Virus record (IMG/VR): IMGVR_UViG_3300033067_000837
Span: 1-33,176 of that record
Length of the DNA stretch: 33,176 nucleotides
Reading direction: 5' to 3' (one strand)
DNA from: a virus
Lineage: Duplodnaviria; Caudoviricetes
The position numbers and the translations under genes were made by a program. How positions within the stretch are numbered: position 1 is the stretch's first letter; the number at the start of each line of letters is the position of its first letter. Positions 1,877 through 29,242 of this stretch are shown here, in pieces. The notes under the pieces are model-generated. The model did no database searches. It was not told the DNA's origin and saw nothing but the letters and a program-made list of their open reading frames with translations.

Positions 1877-2839
1877 ATGCCATCTGCAAATAGCACGTTC
1901 ACCGATTTGGTGACAACCACCTTCCGTAAACATCGGAAAGAAATCAAAGACAACTTGACCAACCGCAATGCATTGTTGAAGTACACAATGAAGCGCGGAA
2001 ACCATCTGAAAGAAGATGGTGGCACAACTATCGTTACCCCTCTTGACTACGCACAAAATGGCACTTATCAGCGCTATTCCGATTGGGACACATTGAACAT
2101 CTCCGCACAAGAAGTATTGAGCGCAGCAGAGTATCAGTGGCGGCAAATTGCCATTAATATCGTGGCGTCCGGTCGCGAACTTCGCATTAACTCAGGCGGT
2201 AGCAAAATCATCGACCTGTCAAAAGCGAAGATGAAAAACGCCATTCGCACATTCAACAACAACTTTTCATTCGACCTGTATTCAGCCGGCACGCTGGCAA
2301 ACCAGATCAATGGACTGCAAGCACTCGTAGCCGACACTAACACCAACACAGTCGGCGGCATTGATGCATCCGCGTTTGACTTCTGGCAAAACAAAGTTTT
2401 TGACTTGTCCGTTCAAGGTGTAACCATTTCCAGCACCACAATCGAAAACTCTGTCATGTTGCCATTGTGGCTTGACTTGGATCGTGGCCCGGATGATTGT
2501 CCAGACTTGATCATTGCCGACAACCTGTATTACAGCTATTTTGAAGGCTCACAAACCAGCCTGAAACGCTACATGGGCGCCGAGTCAGCCAATGGCGGCT
2601 TTGTTACGTTGAAGTACAAAAACGCTGATGTGCTCTATGACGGCAATTCAGGGATCCCGGCAAATCACATGTATTTCTTGAACACCGAGTATTTAAAGCT
2701 GGTTGTTCACCAAGACGCAGACTTGACAGAAGTGCCGGAACAGCGTCCTGTTAACATGGACGGAAGCGTTATCCCGTTATTGTGGATGGGTAACTTTACG
2801 TGCTCAAACAGAGCACAGCAAGGCGTAGTAATTCCCTAA
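1877..2839 (+). CDS. Major capsid protein
   Basis: 320 aa, after the scaffold; GGTTIVTPLDYA and QINGLQALV..T.TVGGID motifs typical of a podovirus-type capsid family. Confidence 0.85.
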   Translation: MPSANSTFTDLVTTTFRKHRKEIKDNLTNRNALLKYTMKRGNHLKEDGGTTIVTPLDYAQNGTYQRYSDWDTLNISAQEVLSAAEYQWRQIAINIVASGRELRINSGGSKIIDLSKAKMKNAIRTFNNNFSFDLYSAGTLANQINGLQALVADTNTNTVGGIDASAFDFWQNKVFDLSVQGVTISSTTIENSVMLPLWLDLDRGPDDCPDLIIADNLYYSYFEGSQTSLKRYMGAESANGGFVTLKYKNADVLYDGNSGIPANHMYFLNTEYLKLVVHQDADLTEVPEQRPVNMDGSVIPLLWMGNFTCSNRAQQGVVIP

Positions 2840-2885
2840 GTAGAAATATTGCAGGGTTCTAAACTTAAACTATAGGAATACAAAC

Positions 2886-3599
2886 ATGTTTGCAGCAACA
2901 TCACCCATCGCGGGAACACAACCTTTCAATGACTGGTTTGCGCCCGACACAACCAAGCGACACCCGCTTGGATTTACTGTTAACGCCGTCGATCCTTTTT
3001 GGGGTCACGGCAAATTTATGTATATCGAATCCGATGCAGCCATTTTAAAAGGCTCGTTGGTGGCTTGGGACGAGGAGTATAAAGGCGTTTTGCTTCCGTC
3101 CGCTGTAACTCAAGGCTTCCCTTTTGGCGTAGCTATGGCCCCTATGGCCGATGGCACTTATGGCTGGATTCAGCTTGAAGGCCGTGCGGTTTATAAAACC
3201 AACGCTACAGTTGCCGCTGATGGAGTTGTCGCTGTTGCCGCCGCTGGTATTTTGGGCGCGACAGCAACCGGTAAACAGTTGCTTGGTATCCGTAATCGTG
3301 TATCAGCGACAGGAACCAAAACAGTGACGGCCAATACTAAGAATGGCTCATACGTCCTGAAAACAGGCGGATATGATGGCTTTTTCTTGGGCATGGCTTT
3401 GTCTGGCACCGGCGTTCCTGCTTCAACGGTTGTCGCTAAGCTATCCCCTGACGGCATGACTATTTTCATGGGTTCAGCCATTGGCACCGTAGGCGATAAG
3501 CTTGCTACTGCCACCGGCACGATCACCTTGACGGGCACTTACACTGGTTACGGATCAGGCATGATCAATAACCCAACTTGCCATCAGATCGTTACTTAA
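2886..3599 (+). CDS. Capsid decoration/cement-type protein
   Basis: Directly after the capsid gene with AGGA RBS; Gly/Ala/Thr-rich; FMY...I.KGS.V.WD and YGWIQLEG motifs. Confidence 0.6.
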   Translation: MFAATSPIAGTQPFNDWFAPDTTKRHPLGFTVNAVDPFWGHGKFMYIESDAAILKGSLVAWDEEYKGVLLPSAVTQGFPFGVAMAPMADGTYGWIQLEGRAVYKTNATVAADGVVAVAAAGILGATATGKQLLGIRNRVSATGTKTVTANTKNGSYVLKTGGYDGFFLGMALSGTGVPASTVVAKLSPDGMTIFMGSAIGTVGDKLATATGTITLTGTYTGYGSGMINNPTCHQIVT

Positions 3600-3631
3600 G
3601 ATCGCTCAGCGCCCCTCGACCAGGATACAAC

Positions 3632-3796
3632 GGCGTATCCCTGGAACGCACGGACCTGTCAACCCTAGAATGGTTAAACCACGCCCAGGAAGAAGCGATG
3701 GACTCGGCAGGGTATTTAGAGGTTCTGATACAGCGGGAAGAAAAACGGCTTCGGAATCCTTTTTACCGACTTTGGGTATGGATATTTGAATTATGA
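3632..3796 (+). pseudogene. 5'-truncated small phage gene (GVSLERTDLSTLEWLNHAQEEAMDSAGYL; MazG-like helical family)
   Basis: Resembles the common phage motif KYG.TL.R.DL...WL.HA.EE.MD...YL but lacks its N-terminus. The ORF-track start at 3578 lies inside the upstream gene. Confidence 0.55.
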
Positions 3797-4569
3797 GACA
3801 CGACAGAATGCATCTAGTTAGCTTTTCTGGCGGCATGGGTTCTTTTGCCGAAGCGTATTATTGTGTAGAAAAATATGGAGCCGAAAATGTAAAATTACTT
3901 TTTGCAGATACGTCAATGGAAGACGAGGATTTATACCGATTCCTTAATGAGGCCGTCACATTCTTAGGCGTCAAATTAATATCGGTAGCCGATGGGAGAA
4001 CACCATTCCAGGTATTTAAAGACGAGAAATTTATGGGCAATAGCAGGATTGACCCGTGCTCTAAGATTCTTAAACGCCTCCTTCTGACCAAGACAATTAA
4101 AAGTCTATACTCACCAAACGAGGTATCCGTTCATTTAGGAATAGACTATTCCGAATGCCATAGGCTACCTCCGATTCAAGCACGGTACTTGCCATATACC
4201 TATCGTTCAACTTTAGTAGAGGACGGCAGGATAATTCCAAAATCATTTAGCGAGCGGTACGGAATACAAAGACCAAGGCTATACCATTGGGGGCTAGGGC
4301 ATAACAACTGCGGAGGTTTCTGCATTAAAGCAGGACTCGGACACTATAAAAAATTATGGGAAGCGAACCCGGAGCGGTATCTGAAATTTGAACAGGAAGA
4401 GGCTGACTGCTATGAGTCTATGGGTAGTACGCACCCGTTCCTGACCCGGACGGTTAACGGGGTAAAACAGCGAATAACGTTAAGGCACTATCGCATTCAC
4501 AGTCTTGAAACTGATACCACAACGGCCAGCGAGAGAGATGAGTTCGGCGGCTGCGGTTGTGCGCTATGA
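3793..4569 (+). CDS. PAPS-reductase-like / adenine nucleotide alpha-hydrolase (PP-loop) protein
   Basis: SFSGG PP-loop, FADT..EDEDLYRFL, CSKILK, HNNCGGFCIKAG and C-terminal GGCGC. Confidence 0.8.
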   Translation: MRHDRMHLVSFSGGMGSFAEAYYCVEKYGAENVKLLFADTSMEDEDLYRFLNEAVTFLGVKLISVADGRTPFQVFKDEKFMGNSRIDPCSKILKRLLLTKTIKSLYSPNEVSVHLGIDYSECHRLPPIQARYLPYTYRSTLVEDGRIIPKSFSERYGIQRPRLYHWGLGHNNCGGFCIKAGLGHYKKLWEANPERYLKFEQEEADCYESMGSTHPFLTRTVNGVKQRITLRHYRIHSLETDTTTASERDEFGGCGCAL

Positions 4570-4587
4570 ATGCGACACGGAGACAAA

Positions 4588-4680
4588 ATGACTGAAATAA
4601 TCTGCTGGGCCAATACCGAGACCGCGTCCGAAGCCGATCTAAAATCGCAGGGAACCTACAAATACGCTCAGCACCCCTCG
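4588..4680 (+). pseudogene. N-terminal 31 codons of a phage family-A DNA polymerase (exonuclease ExoI region), truncated
   Basis: GGAG RBS then MTEIICWANTETASEADLKSQGTYKYAQHPS, matching the D.ET.S..DL...G...YA.HPST start of phage PolA (D replaced by N). The frame runs into the terminator and stops at 4741-4743. Confidence 0.7.
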
Positions 4681-4704
4681 CCCCGGTTCGCCGGGGTGTT
4701 TTTT
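4681..4704 (+). terminator. Rho-independent terminator of the capsid transcript
   Basis: CCCCGG-TTCG-CCGGGG followed by TGTTTTTT. Confidence 0.85.
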
Positions 4705-4726
4705 AATCCTAACCATCATAATAATT

Positions 4727-5368
4727 ATGTCAAATATTGCTGAATTGATACAGGAAGAAATCAAGCCGTTTGTACAATTTAAACGCATTGCAGTAGAAGA
4801 TAAGGCCGAATCCTTACGCGCCGGACATTATGTCGCCAAAGACGTTGATTACGCTTTTATCACGCCTCCTTACTCTAAGGACGTAATGAAGTACAAGGTA
4901 ACAGCTTGGTTCGCCCAACTGGATGCGGAGCTTAAAATTAAGCGAGTCAATCAACAGTGGGTAGACGACTACCACAAAGCTTATGAATTCTGGTTAAAAG
5001 GGCAGGAATTGCCGCTTGATGGGATCCCTATAAAAGGCTGGGGTGTAATTGGCCCGGCACAACAGGAAACCTTAACAAAACTTCATATTTTGACCGTCGA
5101 GCAGCTTGCAGCGGCCAATGACGAGGGCGTAAGACGCATTGGCATGGGGGGCATGGAGCTAAAGAATAAGGCCCAAGCATGGCTTAAGTCATTGAAGAAG
5201 TCAGGCGCGTTATCTATCGAAATGGCCGCTTTACAGCGCGAAAATGAGTCGCTTAAGGCCAGCCTTGAATTGATGCAAAATAAAATTGATTCAATGACTA
5301 AAAACGTTAATGTTGTACACCTAAACAGTCAGGAGATAGGCTTCGATGACATTATTGGAACTGATTAA
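4727..5368 (+). CDS. Conserved-type phage hypothetical protein with C-terminal coiled coil
   Basis: 213 aa; HhH-like LTVEQLAAA...IGMG segment and heptad-rich tail. Lies between head and tail genes. Confidence 0.65.
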   Translation: MSNIAELIQEEIKPFVQFKRIAVEDKAESLRAGHYVAKDVDYAFITPPYSKDVMKYKVTAWFAQLDAELKIKRVNQQWVDDYHKAYEFWLKGQELPLDGIPIKGWGVIGPAQQETLTKLHILTVEQLAAANDEGVRRIGMGGMELKNKAQAWLKSLKKSGALSIEMAALQRENESLKASLELMQNKIDSMTKNVNVVHLNSQEIGFDDIIGTD

Positions 5369-6053
5369 TAGCCAGTCCATACGATCAGGTTTAGGCCGCG
5401 TTCCAACGGCTACGGGATCGACGGATAATCGCGCCCTACAACTTATAGCATTGCTTGAGGAAGAGGGCAATGACCTTGCCGCTCGCCATACATGGCAAGG
5501 GTTGACACAAGAAGCCATTATCACAACCAAGGCCCAAGAAAGCCAAGGCAAATTAAGTACATTAGCCCCAGGATTCAGCTTCATTAAGAATCAAACATTT
5601 TGGGACAGAACCGAACAATTGCCAATCATTGGACCATTGTCTGACCTTGACTGGCAATCACTCAAAGCCAGAACCAACACCGGCCCTCGCTTCCAATACC
5701 GCATCAGAGGCGATGAATTACTATCTAATCCAGTGCCGGCAGTCGGAAGCACTTGGGCGTTTGAATATCAATCGAATAACTGGATACTCGATATTGATGG
5801 CGTTACGCGCAAATCATCGTTTACCAGCGATCAAGACACGTTCTTGCTTCCTGATCATGTGTTATTGCTTGGCCTGCGTTGGCGTTGGCTGGCAGAAAAG
5901 GGATTAAATTACTCAGAAGTGTTTGCGGCTTACGAAATGCAGGTTAAAGACGCCATGAGCAGGGACGGCGGCGGTGCTATTGTTTACAGTGATGGCGGTA
6001 GGCTTGACATGCAACCGGGTATATTTGTGCCAAGTGGCAGTTGGGGTCTATGA
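5346..6053 (+). CDS. Head-tail adaptor (tail tubular protein A-like)
   Basis: MTLLEL start, 235 aa, LGLRWRW..EKG..Y motif; precedes the larger nozzle-type gene. Confidence 0.65.
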   Translation: MTLLELINSQSIRSGLGRVPTATGSTDNRALQLIALLEEEGNDLAARHTWQGLTQEAIITTKAQESQGKLSTLAPGFSFIKNQTFWDRTEQLPIIGPLSDLDWQSLKARTNTGPRFQYRIRGDELLSNPVPAVGSTWAFEYQSNNWILDIDGVTRKSSFTSDQDTFLLPDHVLLLGLRWRWLAEKGLNYSEVFAAYEMQVKDAMSRDGGGAIVYSDGGRLDMQPGIFVPSGSWGL

Positions 6054-7615
6054 GACTGGCTACGCAAACTAAGACGGGGCAGCAAAGGCGACAAATCAGT
6101 GCACTTAAGTCTGTTCCCGCGCCTATAGGCGGATGGAATGCAATAAACCCACTGGCCGATATGCCGGAGAAAGACGCGATTGTTCTTGATAATTGGTTCC
6201 CATCGCCAGGGTATTGTGAGATACGAGGCGGTAGTGTTGAATTTGCGACCGGCATGACCGGAGCCGGTAAAAGCCTGATGGTTCATAATGGCCTATCAGG
6301 TACAAATAAACTATTCTGCGCTACCGCATCAGGCGTTTATAACGTGACTAATGGCGGCGCCGTAGGCGCGTCAGTTGCAACTAGAACTAATGGCAAGCAT
6401 CAATCCTTGATGTTTGGCGACGGCACAAATCAATGGTTAATCGCAGTAAACGGCGTTGATAAGCCGCTTTATTATGATGGAACAACTTGGACAGCAGTCG
6501 ACGGGGCCACAAGCCCAGCGTTAACAGGATTAACGACCACAAGTCTTGTTAATCTGTGCGTGTTCAAGGGCCGGTTAATATTTATTCAGAACAACAGCAT
6601 GGCGTTCTGGTATCTATCAGCAGGTGCTGCCGGCGGAGCCTTAACAAAGTTTGATCTATCAGGCGTGGCGCAAAAGGGCGGCTATATCATGGCGGCCGGA
6701 TCATGGACGCTTGATTCAGGCCAAGGCCCAGATGACCGCATTGTTTTTGTTACATCCGAAGGAGAACTGATTGTTTACCAGGGCACCGACCCGACCAGTG
6801 CAGGAACCTGGGCTCTCGTTGGTGTCTACACAACTGGCAAGCCATTAGGCCGCAAATGCATACTTAAGCAGGGCGCTGACCTTGTTGTATTGACTCAGAA
6901 CGGCGCTTTTCAGATTAATAGAGTTGTACAGGCGACCGGAGCGAACTTCACCGACGCACTCAGCCGCAAGATTGAAACCGTGTTTAATCAGTCAGGCCGC
7001 GATTATGGCTCTAATTATGGCTGGAAAGCGATCGTATTACCAAATAAATCAGCCGCAATTGTTAATGTCCCTGTAGCCGAAGGAGGCACCCATTATCAGT
7101 ACGTTATGAACACGATAACCAGGTCATGGTGCCGATTCACCGGATGGGACGGTGAAGACTTCGAAGTATTCAATAGTGAGCTTTATTACTGCCAAGGCAC
7201 ATCGGTAATAAAAGCATGGACAGGGCAAAGCGATCAAGGCGCTAATATTGTAGCCATTGCTAAGACAGCATTTAGCTATTTCGGCAACAAATTTTCGCTT
7301 AAAAAGTTCAACCTGTTCAGACCAATGCTATCGGCCAATGGCTCATTAACCTATCTGATCGACGTTGACGTTGATTTTGAGGATAAAGCAATAAACGGCG
7401 TAGCATCGTCTAAATCATTTTCTGATCTATGGGGAACGGCCAATTGGGGCACGGCAAAGTGGGGATCATCAAAAGGCGTAATTATACGCGATTGGTTTAG
7501 CATAGCTTCATTTCCTGGATTTTGCGTATCTGGCAAGATACGAATAGATGTTAAAGCCGTCGAGGTTAAATGGTATTCATGCGACTACGTGTATGAAAAT
7601 GGCGGCATCTTATAA
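6050..7615 (+). CDS. Tail nozzle / packaged-DNA stabilisation protein (P22 gp10 / tubular B-like)
   Basis: PAPIGGWN...LDNWFP start, beta-rich repeats (NGVDKPLYYDG.TW), ending WGTANWGTAKW. ATGA overlap with upstream stop. Confidence 0.7.
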   Translation: MRLATQTKTGQQRRQISALKSVPAPIGGWNAINPLADMPEKDAIVLDNWFPSPGYCEIRGGSVEFATGMTGAGKSLMVHNGLSGTNKLFCATASGVYNVTNGGAVGASVATRTNGKHQSLMFGDGTNQWLIAVNGVDKPLYYDGTTWTAVDGATSPALTGLTTTSLVNLCVFKGRLIFIQNNSMAFWYLSAGAAGGALTKFDLSGVAQKGGYIMAAGSWTLDSGQGPDDRIVFVTSEGELIVYQGTDPTSAGTWALVGVYTTGKPLGRKCILKQGADLVVLTQNGAFQINRVVQATGANFTDALSRKIETVFNQSGRDYGSNYGWKAIVLPNKSAAIVNVPVAEGGTHYQYVMNTITRSWCRFTGWDGEDFEVFNSELYYCQGTSVIKAWTGQSDQGANIVAIAKTAFSYFGNKFSLKKFNLFRPMLSANGSLTYLIDVDVDFEDKAINGVASSKSFSDLWGTANWGTAKWGSSKGVIIRDWFSIASFPGFCVSGKIRIDVKAVEVKWYSCDYVYENGGIL

Positions 7616-13428: not shown

Positions 13429-13727
13429 TGAGCATAGAAATAGTTAAAAGCTGTCCATTAGGCGGCAAATGCAGTGAGATAAGAGACAATATTATTCATG
13501 AGTGTGAATGGCTTATTGAGATAGCAGGGATGCACCCCAGCACCGGCGAAAACATCAATCAAAAAAAATGCGCTATGTCATGGATACCCATATTGCTTAT
13601 TGAAAACTCAGCAACAAACCGAGGCCAGACCCAGGCCATAGAATCATTAAGGAATGAAACGGTAGATCATCAAAAGGCCGCCGTCATGACTTTAGCCGGA
13701 ATTTTACAAAAGAGAATAGCACCATGA
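13428..13727 (+). CDS. Cys-rich tail-fibre-associated protein
   Basis: CPLG..C...C.W...G..P.TGE...CA..W.P.LLIE pattern; translationally coupled to the fibre gene. Confidence 0.55.
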   Translation: MSIEIVKSCPLGGKCSEIRDNIIHECEWLIEIAGMHPSTGENINQKKCAMSWIPILLIENSATNRGQTQAIESLRNETVDHQKAAVMTLAGILQKRIAP

Positions 13728-15487
13728 GAATATTATTAATCCTGCTTTTAGTATTAGCGTCGTCATTAACGTCAACTATTGCTTATCCTGATGCATTGTT
13801 AAAGACGTTTAACGCTGAAACTGGAACGGTTGGTCAGTGTGCCCCAACGCCACTGGCCGCAGTTACTTATAATTGCTTAACGATCACCAATAGCCCGGTA
13901 CAAGCTGGAACTAAAGCATATAGTATGCTTTTAACTAATGACGGTTCACTATTTAATGGTGAGCCATTAGCCAAGTATAGAACCGAAATGCGTGGTATTG
14001 TCGATAGTGGATCGACAAGCGTAGCCAGGATGCAATTTGGTCATACTTATTATGTTAGGATTGATTTTTTTCAATCTGCCACACAGTGGCCGGACGATAA
14101 TACATCTGAAAGCTGGCCTATTCAGTTGCACGAAGTTCCATCCTCGTGGACAAATTGGGGCGTTGGTACTTGTCAGCAATCAGCCTTATCGACAGCGCCA
14201 TTTTTCATTAATAACCAAGACGGGATCATGTCTTTCCGGCGCTGGGGCGGCGTTGAGCAGTGGAATCAACGCATAACCAAAGGTGTTTGGCATAAGCTTG
14301 TCATACATATTAAGTTATCAACATCAAGTGATGGCTTTGTCGAAAGCTGGATTGATGGCGTGGCAAAGCCACGTTATACGGGGATTACGCATAGATCATC
14401 AAGCTCTATAAACGTTTATTGTGGGCCAAGCACCACTACAACAGGTGACGTTTCTTTTATTGAACCTCAATATGCTTTTGGTCTATACAAATGGCCTTGG
14501 AAAAATAATGCGACCAGCAATACCAATATTCGCCAAGGTTATCTAGACAATTTATACTGGGCCGAGGACACTGGCGGCGGCACGGCGGCGAGTTTAGTTG
14601 GCGGTACTGACGCGCTCGCGGGCGTAGATACAACGCCTCCAGTTATTAGCGCCATATCTGAAACCAGCATAGGAACAACCAACGCAACGATAAACTTTAC
14701 CACTGATGAGGCGGCTACAACAACCATAAATTATGGCGTAACAACATCCTATGGAACGACTTATACAAATGCGGCGTTAGTTACAACACATACGGCAGCG
14801 TTAACTGGATTAATACCGAATACACAATATAATTACCAGATTCAAACTTCGGATTCATCTGGCAATATCAGGACGCAGGCAAATAGGACGTTTACGACGG
14901 CAGTCGATTTAACAACAGTAGCCCCAATTATTTCATCTGTTGTCGCAACTCCGACCAGTACTGATGCTACTGTCACATGGTCTACAAATGAGTCTGCTAC
15001 GAGTAGAGTTTTGTTTTCATGGGACGCTGGTGCTTCATCATTTGCCGTTTTTCATCCAGCATTTGTAACGAGTCACAGTGTAACAGCATCAGAGGCATCT
15101 GACCTTCCGCCGGCTACGCTTATTAATTATAAAGTAACTGCCAGTGATGTTGACGGCAATTTGACTGATTACTTTGGATCATTTACAACAGATGTTGCCG
15201 TTGCTCCAGTTTTAAACATAACAAATATCATCGCTACATTAGAAAACGATTATATAGTTTTGACATGGACAACTAATAAAGCGGCTACAACTGTAGCCAT
15301 TGTTAACGGATTAACTTACAAAGTATCAGGCTTAAGCACAACTCATACCGTGAGAACAAGCCGAGCAAGGATCGGCGCAGGCACGTTTTCTGTCTCATCA
15401 GTAACGGCAGGGTCAGCGGAATCATTAACTGTTCCAAATATGACTTATTCAATTCTCGCATCATTGCAACAAGATTTAGTTCAATAG
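13724..15487 (+). CDS. Signal-peptide protein with polysaccharide-lyase-like beta-jelly-roll domain plus fibronectin-III-like repeats
   Basis: MRILLILLLVLASS leader; RTEM, IQLH, KGVWH..VIHIK.S...DGFVESWIDG, FGLYK; then DTTPPVIS..., ATI.FTTDE.A...YG.T..YG and HTAALTGL.PNTQY.YQI Fn3 repeats. Confidence 0.65.
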   Translation: MRILLILLLVLASSLTSTIAYPDALLKTFNAETGTVGQCAPTPLAAVTYNCLTITNSPVQAGTKAYSMLLTNDGSLFNGEPLAKYRTEMRGIVDSGSTSVARMQFGHTYYVRIDFFQSATQWPDDNTSESWPIQLHEVPSSWTNWGVGTCQQSALSTAPFFINNQDGIMSFRRWGGVEQWNQRITKGVWHKLVIHIKLSTSSDGFVESWIDGVAKPRYTGITHRSSSSINVYCGPSTTTTGDVSFIEPQYAFGLYKWPWKNNATSNTNIRQGYLDNLYWAEDTGGGTAASLVGGTDALAGVDTTPPVISAISETSIGTTNATINFTTDEAATTTINYGVTTSYGTTYTNAALVTTHTAALTGLIPNTQYNYQIQTSDSSGNIRTQANRTFTTAVDLTTVAPIISSVVATPTSTDATVTWSTNESATSRVLFSWDAGASSFAVFHPAFVTSHSVTASEASDLPPATLINYKVTASDVDGNLTDYFGSFTTDVAVAPVLNITNIIATLENDYIVLTWTTNKAATTVAIVNGLTYKVSGLSTTHTVRTSRARIGAGTFSVSSVTAGSAESLTVPNMTYSILASLQQDLVQ

Positions 15488-19163: not shown

Positions 19164-19555
19164 ACGCATCAACGGAGACGCCACGCATGGATAGAAGAAT
19201 AAGCGATATGCACCTGGACGCCATAGACAAGATGATTACCGAAGAAAACGACGGTGATAAGCGGCAGACGTTGGTATTTTTACAGTCATTGACCAGGGCA
19301 TTATCGAGCAGTATATTGACTCTGGAAAAGATAGATAAAAAACTTGAGGCCCAGGACGACACGATTGAAGGCCATCAAAAGTTTATTGACAAGATAGAGA
19401 ACAGTATCAAACTTGCTATGTGGTTTATAGGATTAATTCATACTGGATTGCTGGCTGTTATGGGTTATGGTCTTATTTATGTTATCGATATGAGTGATCG
19501 AGTTTATGCCCTTGAGAAGTCTATGGCTGTCATCCAAAAGCTGATTGAAAAATAA
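19160..19555 (+). CDS. Coiled-coil membrane protein of the lysis region
   Basis: Probable start MNASTETP..DRR; coiled coil then one transmembrane segment (LAMWFIGLIHTGLLAVMGYGLIYVI). Confidence 0.6.
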   Translation: MNASTETPRMDRRISDMHLDAIDKMITEENDGDKRQTLVFLQSLTRALSSSILTLEKIDKKLEAQDDTIEGHQKFIDKIENSIKLAMWFIGLIHTGLLAVMGYGLIYVIDMSDRVYALEKSMAVIQKLIEK

Positions 19556-19794
19556 TTTATACAACCAAAGAGTAAATATCATGACCGAAAAAACATTACA
19601 CAATTCAGACGTATCAGGCGCAAGAGTTAACGTGCCTGACATTGGCGACATGTTTAAATTGCTATGCAAAGCATCAAGCCAAAATGAAGGCTGGATGCAA
19701 AATAATTTATACAACCAAAGAGTAAATATCATGACCGAAAAAACATTACACAATTCAGACGTATCAGGCGCAAGAGTTAACGTGCCTGACATTG
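19549..19794 (+). repeat. Perfect 96-bp direct repeat with 150-bp period
   Basis: 19549-19644 = 19699-19794 (AAAATAATTTATAC...CCTGACATTG). Confidence 0.95.
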
Positions 19795-20597
19795 AAGCAT
19801 TCAGGGATGAATGCGCCCCCCAGCCGAATCGCGTACGTTTTTCTTAGCGTGAGGCGCGAGGGCCGATTTAATCAGCATCCGCTTTCTGCTTTTGATTTTC
19901 AAACACCGGAGTTACAAATGAATTATAGAAATTTGAAGCCTATTTTAATAGGTTGTGAAGAAAGCCAAACTATTTGTAAAGCGTTTCGTGACGCTGGTTA
20001 CGAGGCGTTTTCGTGCGATATTGAACCAACACGCGGGAACAGTGAATGGCATTACCAGGCCGATATTATGAAAATAATACCTGAAAAACAATGGGGCTTG
20101 ATTATCCTGCATCCTGATTGTACAGCTATGGCATTGTGTGGCAATAGATGGTATGAAAAGAACATGCCTAAACATAATGAGAGAGTAAAAGCAATTGAAT
20201 GGACGCTTAAATTGTGGGAATTGGCAAAAAAACATAGTGACCGTGTGGCGCTTGAAAATCCATTGAGTGTAATTTTTTCTTATCTTGAAGCTAATTATGT
20301 GCATCCTTGGGAGCATGGACATGGAGAAACAAAGAAAACGGGGTTTGCATTGCACAATTTAGAGCCATTAAAGCCATCTAACATTGTCGATGGTAGGGAA
20401 CAACGGGTTTGGAAAATGCCGCCGTCGCCAACTCGTAAGAGAGATAGAAGCAAAACGTATGAAGGCATTGCACAAGCTATTGTAATGCAGTGGGGTGAAT
20501 GTGTTTCTTTTATCTAATTGGCGTGAAACTCGACCTAATTTAACTGTTAGCTTTCGCTTGGAGCGAGGCGGTCAGTTTGAAAGCGGATTCCAAAAAG
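19795..20597. mobile_element. 800-bp insertion carrying a methyltransferase-like gene, flanked by AAG
   Basis: AAG at 19795-19797 and 20595-20597. Removing 800 bp restores the host gene. No transposase or integrase inside. Confidence 0.7.
19918..20517 (+). CDS. SAM-dependent DNA (cytosine) methyltransferase-like phage protein
   Basis: GGAG RBS at 19908. ILIGCEESQ..C.AF...G..A.SCD, HPDCT (P-x-C), LENP, K.TGF and PPS..R...RSKT..GIA.A...QWG motifs. Confidence 0.7.
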   Translation: MNYRNLKPILIGCEESQTICKAFRDAGYEAFSCDIEPTRGNSEWHYQADIMKIIPEKQWGLIILHPDCTAMALCGNRWYEKNMPKHNERVKAIEWTLKLWELAKKHSDRVALENPLSVIFSYLEANYVHPWEHGHGETKKTGFALHNLEPLKPSNIVDGREQRVWKMPPSPTRKRDRSKTYEGIAQAIVMQWGECVSFI

Positions 20598-20824
20598 TAG
20601 TCGGTAACGGCGACATGTTTAAATTGCTATGCAAAGCATCAAGCCAAAATGAAGGCTGGATGAAATCAACAAAAGCAATGCAAGTTACTGGTGGTTGCGT
20701 TGTTCAGGTAACTACTCAACAAAAGAATCCAGACGGATCATATTCATTAGCAGAGGCGCTAACTTTTGTCCCTGATGCCGTTATTGTTGACGATGAAAAT
20801 AATGGCAGAAAACTGATCTAATCC

Positions 20825-27316: not shown

Positions 27317-27979
27317 TCAAAATAGAATATCATCATCATAATAATCAAACTCGCCAGAATGAGGAGAAATAGTATACTCAGGAACAACCTCTGCCTGCGG
27401 CTGATTTCTTGCCTGTTTCATAATATGTGCATCCTCCACCCGAACCTTTTCATCCGGCGCCGAAACCCCCCTGATAAAATTTCCTTTTATATGCCGCTCC
27501 GTTCCATCTTCATTATATTGAACCGTTCCGTCTGGATTTTTTGCAGGGAACGAATACTCACCAAACGTAGCCATCACCGTCAACCCTGTAAACGCCCGGT
27601 TATATTGCTGATCGCTCAGGTCTGCCAATGACTTTGCATGTTTAGCCAATTTTTGAAGCCGACCGCCTGCAATCATGTCATATACCATCGCCTTATCGAT
27701 TGTAGCGTCCATAATTTCATCATCTTCGCTGAAAACAAACAGCTTAGCTTTTGCCGTACAGCCTCTGTATGCACCTTCAACCACTTTAACTTGCACCTCT
27801 AACAATTTTTTACCTTGCTTTGCCAGCTTGGCCGAATCACGCTCTTTATTGTCAACAATCTGACACCCGATCACGTTGCACAGTAATCTATCACCTTCCG
27901 GCACCCGTTTAAAATTTGCTGATTCATAGCTTGTTGATGGTGCAGCTTGTTCTCCGTTGCTTTTTGTAAATATACTCAT
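27317..27979 (-). CDS. Single-stranded DNA-binding protein-like (DUF669-type)
   Basis: F..VPEG start, V.EG.Y.G, N.I.G and acidic aromatic tail YYDDDILF; downstream of the Sak4-like gene. Confidence 0.65.
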   Translation of the reverse strand: MSIFTKSNGEQAAPSTSYESANFKRVPEGDRLLCNVIGCQIVDNKERDSAKLAKQGKKLLEVQVKVVEGAYRGCTAKAKLFVFSEDDEIMDATIDKAMVYDMIAGGRLQKLAKHAKSLADLSDQQYNRAFTGLTVMATFGEYSFPAKNPDGTVQYNEDGTERHIKGNFIRGVSAPDEKVRVEDAHIMKQARNQPQAEVVPEYTISPHSGEFDYYDDDILF

Positions 27980-28000
27980 GTTATTTCCTACTGTTAAAAA

Positions 28001-28195
28001 TTAATTAATTGTTACTCGTTTATTCCATTTTTCTATCGCCTTATTACCTCTAACTTCCGGCCTAAAGCTAACAAATGCTCCACATCCGTCGCTTCCATCA
28101 TCACGTTGACCGCATGTAATAAAAATAATTTTATTAATTCCTGTATGTATAAAAACAGTGCCACCACAAAATGGGCAAGCGAATAATTTATCCAC
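28001..28195 (-). CDS. Lar-like (restriction alleviation family) zinc-ribbon protein
   Basis: CPFCGG...I.C...GCGA...AIEKWNKR. Confidence 0.7.
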   Translation of the reverse strand: MDKLFACPFCGGTVFIHTGINKIIFITCGQRDDGSDGCGAFVSFRPEVRGNKAIEKWNKRVTIN

Positions 28196-28196
28196 G

Positions 28197-29063
28197 TTAT
28201 AACTCCAAATCACTAAAAATTACTTTCGACGTTTCATCGTCATATATATTAATCGGGTACATATCCGGCACATTATTTATGTCACGCGTCCAAACTTTCG
28301 CATCAAATGCGTTATTATTTCGCGTATAAACCATAATGGTTGGAGTAGAATTATTATCGGCAATATTCTTTTTACCGATAAAGCTTTTTATCTCCTTTGT
28401 TTTTGATTCGCTTCTCATGACATAGGTAAATCGTGACGCAGCAAAAAGCTTTTGCCCAAAATCGTAATTACCCCAGCTGAGAAGGTTTAACTCGGTTCGT
28501 TTGTATTCATCTCCGTCAAAATCCTGTCTTCTTTTTTCGTGCGTATGGCAAAGCAATAGAACATTTATGCCGCGTTTTTTAAAAGCATTTACAGCAACTA
28601 AAAAACGGTTCCATTTGGCCTCTACTTTCCCATAACCAGCACCGAAAAGATAATCGTCGATCGATTCTACTTTTTTAGGAACCTTGCTTTTTCCGTCAGC
28701 GCTTTTAACCATAATTGTCGGTTCTGATTCAATAACGTTTGCAATAAACATAGTTTCAAGCGGTTTTGCTGAATCGATTACAATAGTCTTATAGTTATGT
28801 TTTATAGTTATTAAATGCTTTAGCGCTTCCCAAAAATCATTTTCCTTTTCCGGCATCAATAAGCGGCCTTTGCTGTCAACAAACAAGCCGATATTTCTAG
28901 TACCAGACAAGTGTTCAACGCCAGACTCATTGGCTATAAAAAAAGGATCAGGCGCAAAACTTGCAAGGTTTGTTTTACCGCATCCAGGCATCCCGGCGAT
29001 AATGCCGAACCAAGCTGTTTTTATTGGTTCTGAACTAATAGTTGCGTTTTCTAAGAAGCTCAT
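28197..29063 (-). CDS. AAA_24 / Sak4-like ATPase (single-strand annealing recombinase family)
   Basis: Walker A GMPGCGKT, E.G, Walker B TIVIDS, GAGY and LLCH motifs; linked to SSB-like and Gp157 genes. Confidence 0.8.
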   Translation of the reverse strand: MSFLENATISSEPIKTAWFGIIAGMPGCGKTNLASFAPDPFFIANESGVEHLSGTRNIGLFVDSKGRLLMPEKENDFWEALKHLITIKHNYKTIVIDSAKPLETMFIANVIESEPTIMVKSADGKSKVPKKVESIDDYLFGAGYGKVEAKWNRFLVAVNAFKKRGINVLLLCHTHEKRRQDFDGDEYKRTELNLLSWGNYDFGQKLFAASRFTYVMRSESKTKEIKSFIGKKNIADNNSTPTIMVYTRNNNAFDAKVWTRDINNVPDMYPINIYDDETSKVIFSDLEL

Positions 29064-29242
29064 CGATGCAGTCCCCATAAATTTATAACCGCATCGTCAA
29101 CTGATATTAAATTAAACTTATGACATTGACATTTGCTTTTTTTAATTGCATTTTGAATAATCCTCTCCCCGCACCAATAGACAATATTGTGAGGAAGTTT
29201 AGAAGCAATCCATCGCTCTATTTTATACTTGTAAATATTCAT
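29060..29242 (-). CDS. Hypothetical protein
   Basis: 60 aa, WIA.KLP..IVYWC; ATGA overlaps on both sides. Confidence 0.6.
   Translation of the reverse strand: MNIYKYKIERWIASKLPHNIVYWCGERIIQNAIKKSKCQCHKFNLISVDDAVINLWGLHR

Follow-up and report, generated by a model that had tools for sequence, protein, structure and literature searches.

By what route did 1,062 nt of foreign phage DNA come to lie, in permuted order, between two genes of another phage? The window analysed here is the whole of one record of an uncultured virus, a linear sequence of 33,176 nt that is about 64% complete. According to a PHROG scan, its plus strand carries capsid and tail genes and its minus strand a primase, a helicase, an SSB and a Sak4-like gene; a DNA polymerase was absent among the 33 recipient proteins scanned. 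Relatives of this recipient phage are also present as proviruses, and because one of them sits in a Methylobacter MAG, a methanotroph is a plausible, if undemonstrated, host.

Architecture of the insert and its flanks

The insert lies directly 3' of a structural gene of the recipient and 5' of a terminator-like hairpin. The features discussed below are the following (positions in the window).

2886 to 3599, plus strand: left flank, host virion structural gene following the major capsid gene (PHROG 29386; 65 viral loci matched)
3603 to 3618, plus strand: left copy of the 16-nt crossover core, with G at position 9
3619 to 3630, plus strand: donor polA codons 32-35 (TRIQ), the displaced continuation (residues 32-35 of the homologue P0121)
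3630 to 3631, no strand: internal joint of the permuted fragment (1 nt common to both genes, a second possible)
3630 to 3796, plus strand: 5'-truncated small phage gene of unknown function (PHROG 17558, E 5e-8)
3793 to 4569, plus strand: intact 258-aa PAPS-reductase-like (SspD/PptA-like) gene, whose start overlaps the stop of the small gene (PHROG 424, E 2.5e-35)
4588 to 4680, plus strand: donor polA codons 1-31 (phmmer match to P0121)
4665 to 4680, plus strand: right copy of the 16-nt core, with A at position 9 as the polA His needs
4679 to 4704, plus strand: host terminator-like hairpin and T run, now 3' of the insert (similar hairpins follow the structural gene in many relatives)
4727 to 5368, plus strand: right flank, next host gene (in the relative L014 it lies 64 nt after the stop codon, with 60% identity)
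27317 to 29078, minus strand: genes for the host SSB and a Sak4-like annealing protein, which may supply the recombination machinery (PHROG 9002 and 124)

A direct repeat of 16 nt, 15/16 alike, brackets the insert, its two copies being 1,062 nt apart. A first-pass annotation of this DNA had described the match as 12/13 nt; as measured, it extends over 16 nt with one mismatch. The core is present in only these two copies in the window, even when up to 3 mismatches are allowed. Between the copies are found, in order, 12 nt, a small gene cut at its 5' end, an intact PAPS-reductase-like gene (the cargo), and a 31-codon ORF start.

The insert is extra gene content between genes that are adjacent in relatives. 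Cargo, small gene and polA are missing from all of the 65 related loci (64 viral loci with the upstream structural gene and the MAG locus), and the insert is absent from all three whole records of close relatives. In the usual layout of the relatives, the next host gene follows within about 60–170 nt, or after another short gene. Base composition is uninformative, the GC content of 0.46 showing no useful difference from the flanks, and Rfam gave no match in the window. The upstream gene had been called a decoration gene in the first-pass annotation; PHROG gives only "virion structural protein".

Other extras occupy the same spot 3' of the structural gene in three relatives: two large genes in L012 (4712-7076), one of which resembles by eye positions 13724-15487 of the window, and HNH-like genes, also recognized by eye, in L027 (3853-4547) and L046 (4712-5220). 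The site tolerates insertions.

What the data show directly is how the parts are ordered, that polA is split and the small gene truncated, that a repeat is present, and that relatives lack the insert. The first-pass reading of foreign origin and circular permutation is supported. As read from the sequence, the insert is foreign phage DNA in circularly permuted order, with the start of a polA gene split between its two ends.

A split polymerase gene, a cut small gene and an intact cargo

The right end was identified with a phmmer search that used its 31 residues alone. Among 1.84 billion representatives a single match was returned, P0121, a protein of 1006 aa with the Pfam DNA_pol_A domain (family A polymerase) and 87% identity to the 31-residue stretch (E 8e-9). 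A tblastn search with the PolA N-terminus against 50,697 phage records matched 712 of them, and 35 of the 40 matches listed were annotated as DNA polymerase. Both searches confirm that 4588-4680 encodes a PolA N-terminus. P0121 reads YAQHPS-TRIQ-LFSYG, and positions 3619-3630 of the window, in the frame of the left repeat, encode TRIQ. When all six frames of the window are read (66,330 positions), this tetrapeptide turns up once; in a fixed frame it would be met by chance with a probability of about 1e-5. P0121 was found without TRIQ in the query, and its own continuation after HP is STRIQ, so that the proposed displacement of the polA continuation to the left end of the insert is upheld by an independent homologue.

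Other homologues point the same way with less force. Among 20 further PolA homologues, the position of TRIQ is occupied by TRIQ (5), TEIT (4), TDIQ (3), TRVQ (2) and six single types; this tally is supporting only, as the query contained TRIQ, and the search pattern missed 3 of 24. Two PolAs of cultured phages continue with HPTTEVI and HPTTEIV. A pattern that included STRI found three loci, all polA, a result biased by design and not counted as proof. No viral contig was retrieved with a degenerate pattern built on the residues that precede the junction, and a word-index protein search with the 57-aa ORF at 4570-4740 returned no match among longer proteins. At one position of the polA stub an Asn replaces the Asp found in all 15 of the 15 relatives aligned, a sign that the stub has probably decayed somewhat after its capture. 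P0121 itself holds, at residues of about 458-745, a long insertion with ends that look intein-like by eye, most of its relatives having about 700–740 aa.

The small gene, whose reading frame is counted from 3632, is the other broken partner. Its full-length relatives in cultured phages have about 20 extra N-terminal residues, ending in G-K-Y-G-V. A separate contig, present in both runs (X1 and X2) described below, is about 85% alike over 3630-3786 and unrelated upstream of the 3630 point, where the K-K-Y codons lacking from the insert can be made out by eye. The gene is placed as cut at 3630, because the likeness to this intact relative starts exactly there, and the PHROG 17558 match, the longer relatives and the intact contig all agree with the truncation first noted. 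Since TRIQ ends and the small-gene likeness starts at base 3630, this base belongs to both polA and the small gene; base 3631 may also be common to both if the Leu codon of the donor began with C.

By contrast with these two stubs, the cargo ORF is open and keeps the conserved columns of its family. Its best profile and structure-database matches, over about 200 residues, are to SspD in PADLOC (E 1e-10) and to PptA in PDB 21FY (E 1.5e-10). Against Pfam PF01507 it scored 20.1 bits, under the curated cut-off of 22.5, and none of the CysH models of NCBIfam matched it. PptA is linked to DNA phosphorothioation. Given the better matches to SspD and PptA, a sulfur-transfer role in DNA modification would be at least as likely for the cargo as one in sulfate assimilation. 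It is nevertheless a distant member (E about 1e-10) and differs from SspD/PptA in having arrived without partner genes, none of which was found in the insert.

How these genes were arranged in the donor can be approached from other phages. Of 134 other loci with a PAPS-like gene, 123 of which had at least 100 nt downstream, 13 have polA as the next gene; these 13 are partly redundant, many coming from one clade, and are about 60–65% alike to the cargo. In most of the loci L074-L089, L127 and L130 the gene is located between an SSB-like gene (by eye) and polA. Elsewhere it has many different neighbours, so that the PAPS-like gene itself moves often. The small gene was beside it in none of the 134 loci, and none of the 80 polA loci of the relatives of P0121 matched the insert DNA, the small gene or the PAPS-like gene. 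In both runs, the relative of the small gene is followed by a different gene. The order proposed for the donor thus derives from the overlapping stop and start codons and from a more distant polA clade. A blastn search of the insert against phage records returned short parts only, in 8 records.

Probable entry of the fragment at a short match

We consider most probable, at roughly 60%, that a 1,062-nt fragment of a polA-carrying phage was circularised, and that a single crossover, at a fortuitous match of 15/16 nt just 5' of the terminator, then brought the circle into the recipient. The donor DNA would have been broken in the small gene and at polA codon 35/36, and its ends joined over 1-2 nt; a tandem duplication popping out a circle would be equivalent. 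A general annealing or recombination protein, plausibly the Sak4-like protein of the recipient with its SSB, would then have recombined the circle with the recipient genome. Should the G/A difference between the core copies be older than the event, the crossover would fall within the last 7 nt of the core. The recombinant would owe its survival to the fact that all host genes stayed whole and that the hairpin, itself undamaged, was only displaced downstream. Read-through of the late capsid transcript would in that case reach the PAPS-like gene, and the two gene stubs would decay.

The recipient proteins are candidates only for this role. The Sak4 of HK620 anneals oligonucleotides with a divergence of up to 20% (PMC5928155). 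For RecET, recombination between matches of 5-13 nt is cited, at a frequency of about 1e-8, whereas the minimal homology cited for RecA or Red is roughly 30 bp, above the 16 nt available here (PMC2327257).

Chance suffices for the 15/16 match, which needs no special explanation. When 200 random 1,062-mers were compared with the rest of the genome, at least one match of 15/16 or better was found for 55% of them (mean 0.96), in agreement with the earlier proposal of an entry at a fortuitous short match. Apart from its own site, the real insert matches the genome nowhere at 15/16 or better, so that the insertion site is the best one that was available.

The empty site can be compared with that of L014, the closest relative lacking the insert, which shows 86% protein identity upstream and whose DNA match resumes at position 4664 of the window. 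After the stop codon of its structural gene, L014 carries the first 11 nt of the core motif, with A at position 9. A motif search for closer empty sites returned 71 loci, and only the L014 contig had the motif after the structural gene; no close empty site was found among the relatives, and in the relative from the Methylobacter MAG (L207) the intergenic stretch is different. Many relatives have a hairpin of similar kind after the structural gene; a different terminator in relatives lacking the insert, which would have spoken against the first-pass reading, was not observed. The hairpin proper (4679-4698) overlaps the 16-nt core by 2 nt only. It was likely pushed downstream intact by 1,062 nt, and the earlier suggestion that the terminator was broken and rebuilt is less likely. 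As there is no terminator-like site on the plus strand between 2971 and 4679, transcription from the capsid genes would probably read through into the cargo. The insert contains 8 promoter-like sites against 6.0 +/- 2.6 in shuffled sequences, which is the chance level.

The main rival of the circle is a cointegrate of the whole circular donor genome with the recipient, perhaps then a prophage, formed at the same 16-nt match and then trimmed by one or more deletions that left 12 nt on the left side and about 1,050 nt on the right. The final sequence would be identical. Scaled from the simulation, 15/16 matches are far more numerous between two whole genomes than between a fragment and a genome, and the occurrence of relatives as proviruses or in the Methylobacter MAG would give time for trimming. 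On the other hand, the intermediate would presumably be too large for packaging in one piece, and it would have to persist despite the activity of the donor genome; no such intermediate was seen. We hold this route to be unlikely, but a serious contender. Of the circularised segment of about 1.06 kb first proposed, the permuted foreign fragment thus stands, and its sequence fits equally a small circle or a whole genome later trimmed as the substrate. Neither the circle nor the donor genome was found; the contigs of the two runs, which drop rare forms, contained no joint of a free circle. Neither model explains why a mere 12 nt separate the core and the internal joint, a closeness that a random circle gives about 2–5% of the time. 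It could be accounted for, as a speculation, by an unsealed joint that made nearby DNA recombinogenic.

A further alternative keeps the staggered crossovers of the first-pass annotation. Starting from a host site with a longer hairpin, synthesis would have switched template at the 12/13-nt match, gone once round plus 3 nt, and returned at a 2-nt match. Hairpins can stall replication, which counts in its favour, and the modelled site folds slightly better, with the predicted 10-bp stem at -18.2 kcal/mol against 8 pairs and -16.5 kcal/mol for the one-crossover site; this fold is reproduced, but not the former existence of the site. The distance from motif start to hairpin loop, counted by eye, is 21 nt in L014, close to the 22 nt of the one-crossover model and far from the 15 nt of the staggered one. 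Moreover, two separate switches are invoked where one crossover in the 15/16-nt match, itself in no need of special explanation, accounts for everything. Staggered crossovers are hence unneeded, and we judge this alternative improbable.

A site-specific or transposase-driven insertion with a 16-nt target duplication is largely refuted. A direct repeat does bracket the insert, as the duplicated core of a Campbell integration at an att site would, and an integrase may be unseen, the record being incomplete. The repeat nevertheless belongs to the coding sequence of polA, whose reading frame is kept across the permutation, so that the core splits polA, whereas an att site is gene-sparing and reused; this insert is absent from the site in all 65 relatives. 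The ends consist of polA and small-gene codons, with neither terminal inverted repeats nor an end-to-end inverted repeat, unlike an insertion sequence or an integron cassette with its attC-type hairpin, and the only recombinase-sized ORF of the insert is the PAPS-like gene. The absence of an integrase noted at first agrees with the lack of any PF00589 (tyrosine integrase) match in the record, about 64% complete, and of any integrase among the 33 PHROG-scanned proteins.

Finally, an assembly or amplification chimera is scarcely credible. It is true that the data are at contig level, that X1 (possibly the source sample) and X2 belong to the same study, and that only one of the two bridges the left junction. 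However, an independent (Logan) assembly of X1 gives a single 4,030-nt contig at depth 28 (29 for its neighbour) that covers 2102-6131 and both junctions with no differences and no joints, a 647-nt contig of X2 bridges the right junction (the left is not covered), and the polA stub has changed at an invariant residue as expected of a resident, drifting remnant. The junctions are therefore spanned, in contigs and not in raw reads, and no joint that skips the insert is among those listed for the contigs of X1 and X2, which hide rare forms.

Relation to known systems, and a second insert

Circle-mediated gene transfer has precedents in phages and in yeast. In the T4-type phages RB49 and phi1, PeSL mini-circles are sub-kilobase to kilobase gene circles packaged in about 1 in 100,000 virions (Arbiol et al. 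2010, PMC2839356). As described there, they resemble the present case in that circles of phage genes are proposed to move between phages and to enter the new genome through one crossover close to a stem-loop terminator, no integrase having been identified. However, both the formation and the reinsertion of PeSL circles take place at promoter-terminator cassettes that are conserved and repeated, so that genes stay whole (PMC2839356). In the present insert the two joints fall within coding sequence, the ends at the closing joint have 1-2 nt in common, the entry match is a one-off due to chance, and donor and recipient are unrelated phages that are not T4-like. Repeated flanking cassettes of the PeSL type are lacking, since the core occurs only twice in the window, promoter hits are at chance level and the closing joint is coding. 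In wine yeasts, region B consists of foreign DNA in permuted order, interpreted as a circle that integrated at a site of microhomology (Galeote et al. 2011, PMC3053389). The permuted order is shared, but region B, according to that report, is eukaryotic, measures 17 kb, has a replication origin and shows several independent openings that support a circle, against one opening and a 16-nt core here.

The insert also recalls morons, extra genes located between conserved structural genes and absent from relatives, whose mechanism of entry is given as undefined and perhaps illegitimate (Hendrix et al. 2000, as cited in PMC2839356). Morons are there said to bring their own promoter and terminator; the present insert uses the host terminator, has no promoter above chance level, and keeps stubs that reveal its route. 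A further likeness is with relaxed homologous recombination, by which phages capture genes from one another at imperfect homology (De Paepe et al. 2014, PMC3945230; Martinsohn et al. 2008, PMC2327257; PMC5928155), and the recipient encodes Sak4-like and SSB proteins. These exchanges, as reported, use longer diverged homology on the flanks, in contrast with the single 16-nt match and permuted order found here, and illegitimate events have been argued to be the rarer route (PMC3945230). Among the main texts of the open-access literature, no report of cassette-free permuted inserts in phages was found. What is known are thus the PeSL mini-circles of phages and circle-mediated transfer in yeast, and what differs here is that no conserved cassette is involved.

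The locus is one fixed scar and not an active system, and it represents a clean, unusually legible case of a known kind of event, circle-mediated gene transfer. If the circle reading is true, phages could gain genes without an integrase, by means of a small circle and one crossover at a chance 16-base match. The entry of single genes without integrase or conserved linkers is usually filed as undefined illegitimate recombination because the junctions are eroded; here both joints are readable to within a few bases and can be checked against independent homologues. They provide a concrete signature, a short direct repeat with a gene split in permuted order, to be counted across phage genomes. More tentatively, random sub-genomic circles, crossed by annealing proteins into unrelated phages at the best match of about 16 nt, may be a regular route of moron gain that leaves this searchable scar, and that here would have put a lone SspD/PptA-like enzyme under late capsid control. 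PAPS-reductase-like genes are often reported as metabolic auxiliary genes (PMC13369170). A gene often counted as such a "cysH" can arrive by accident with broken neighbours, and the presence of a "cysH"-type gene alone therefore says little about benefit.

A second and different insert, with a DNA methyltransferase gene (PHROG 757), is found at 19794-20596 of the window, where it interrupts a small gene without a change of frame. A 10-nt inverted repeat is common to both ends of this insert. The same ends flank TnpB genes (IS605 OrfB, Cas12f1-like) in L279, L280 and L283, the left end being also present in L282; in L281 they flank the same methyltransferase inside another gene, with 77% DNA identity over 823 nt. 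From these sequences it looks like an IS200/605- or IStron-like element in which TnpB was replaced by a methyltransferase; it had no credible Rfam match. Duplications of 108 nt and 57 nt (19537-19794 and 20609-20665) accompany the element and give a short extra copy of the interrupted gene, minus 5 codons, placed before it. Since long Logan contigs break there, they may be an assembly artefact or a local rearrangement. Lastly, in a contig of X2 (window 20593 to 19855), sequence like the right end of the element is joined to its left end, with 42 nt on the short side; this may be a circular or tandem form of the element, or the copy of another organism.
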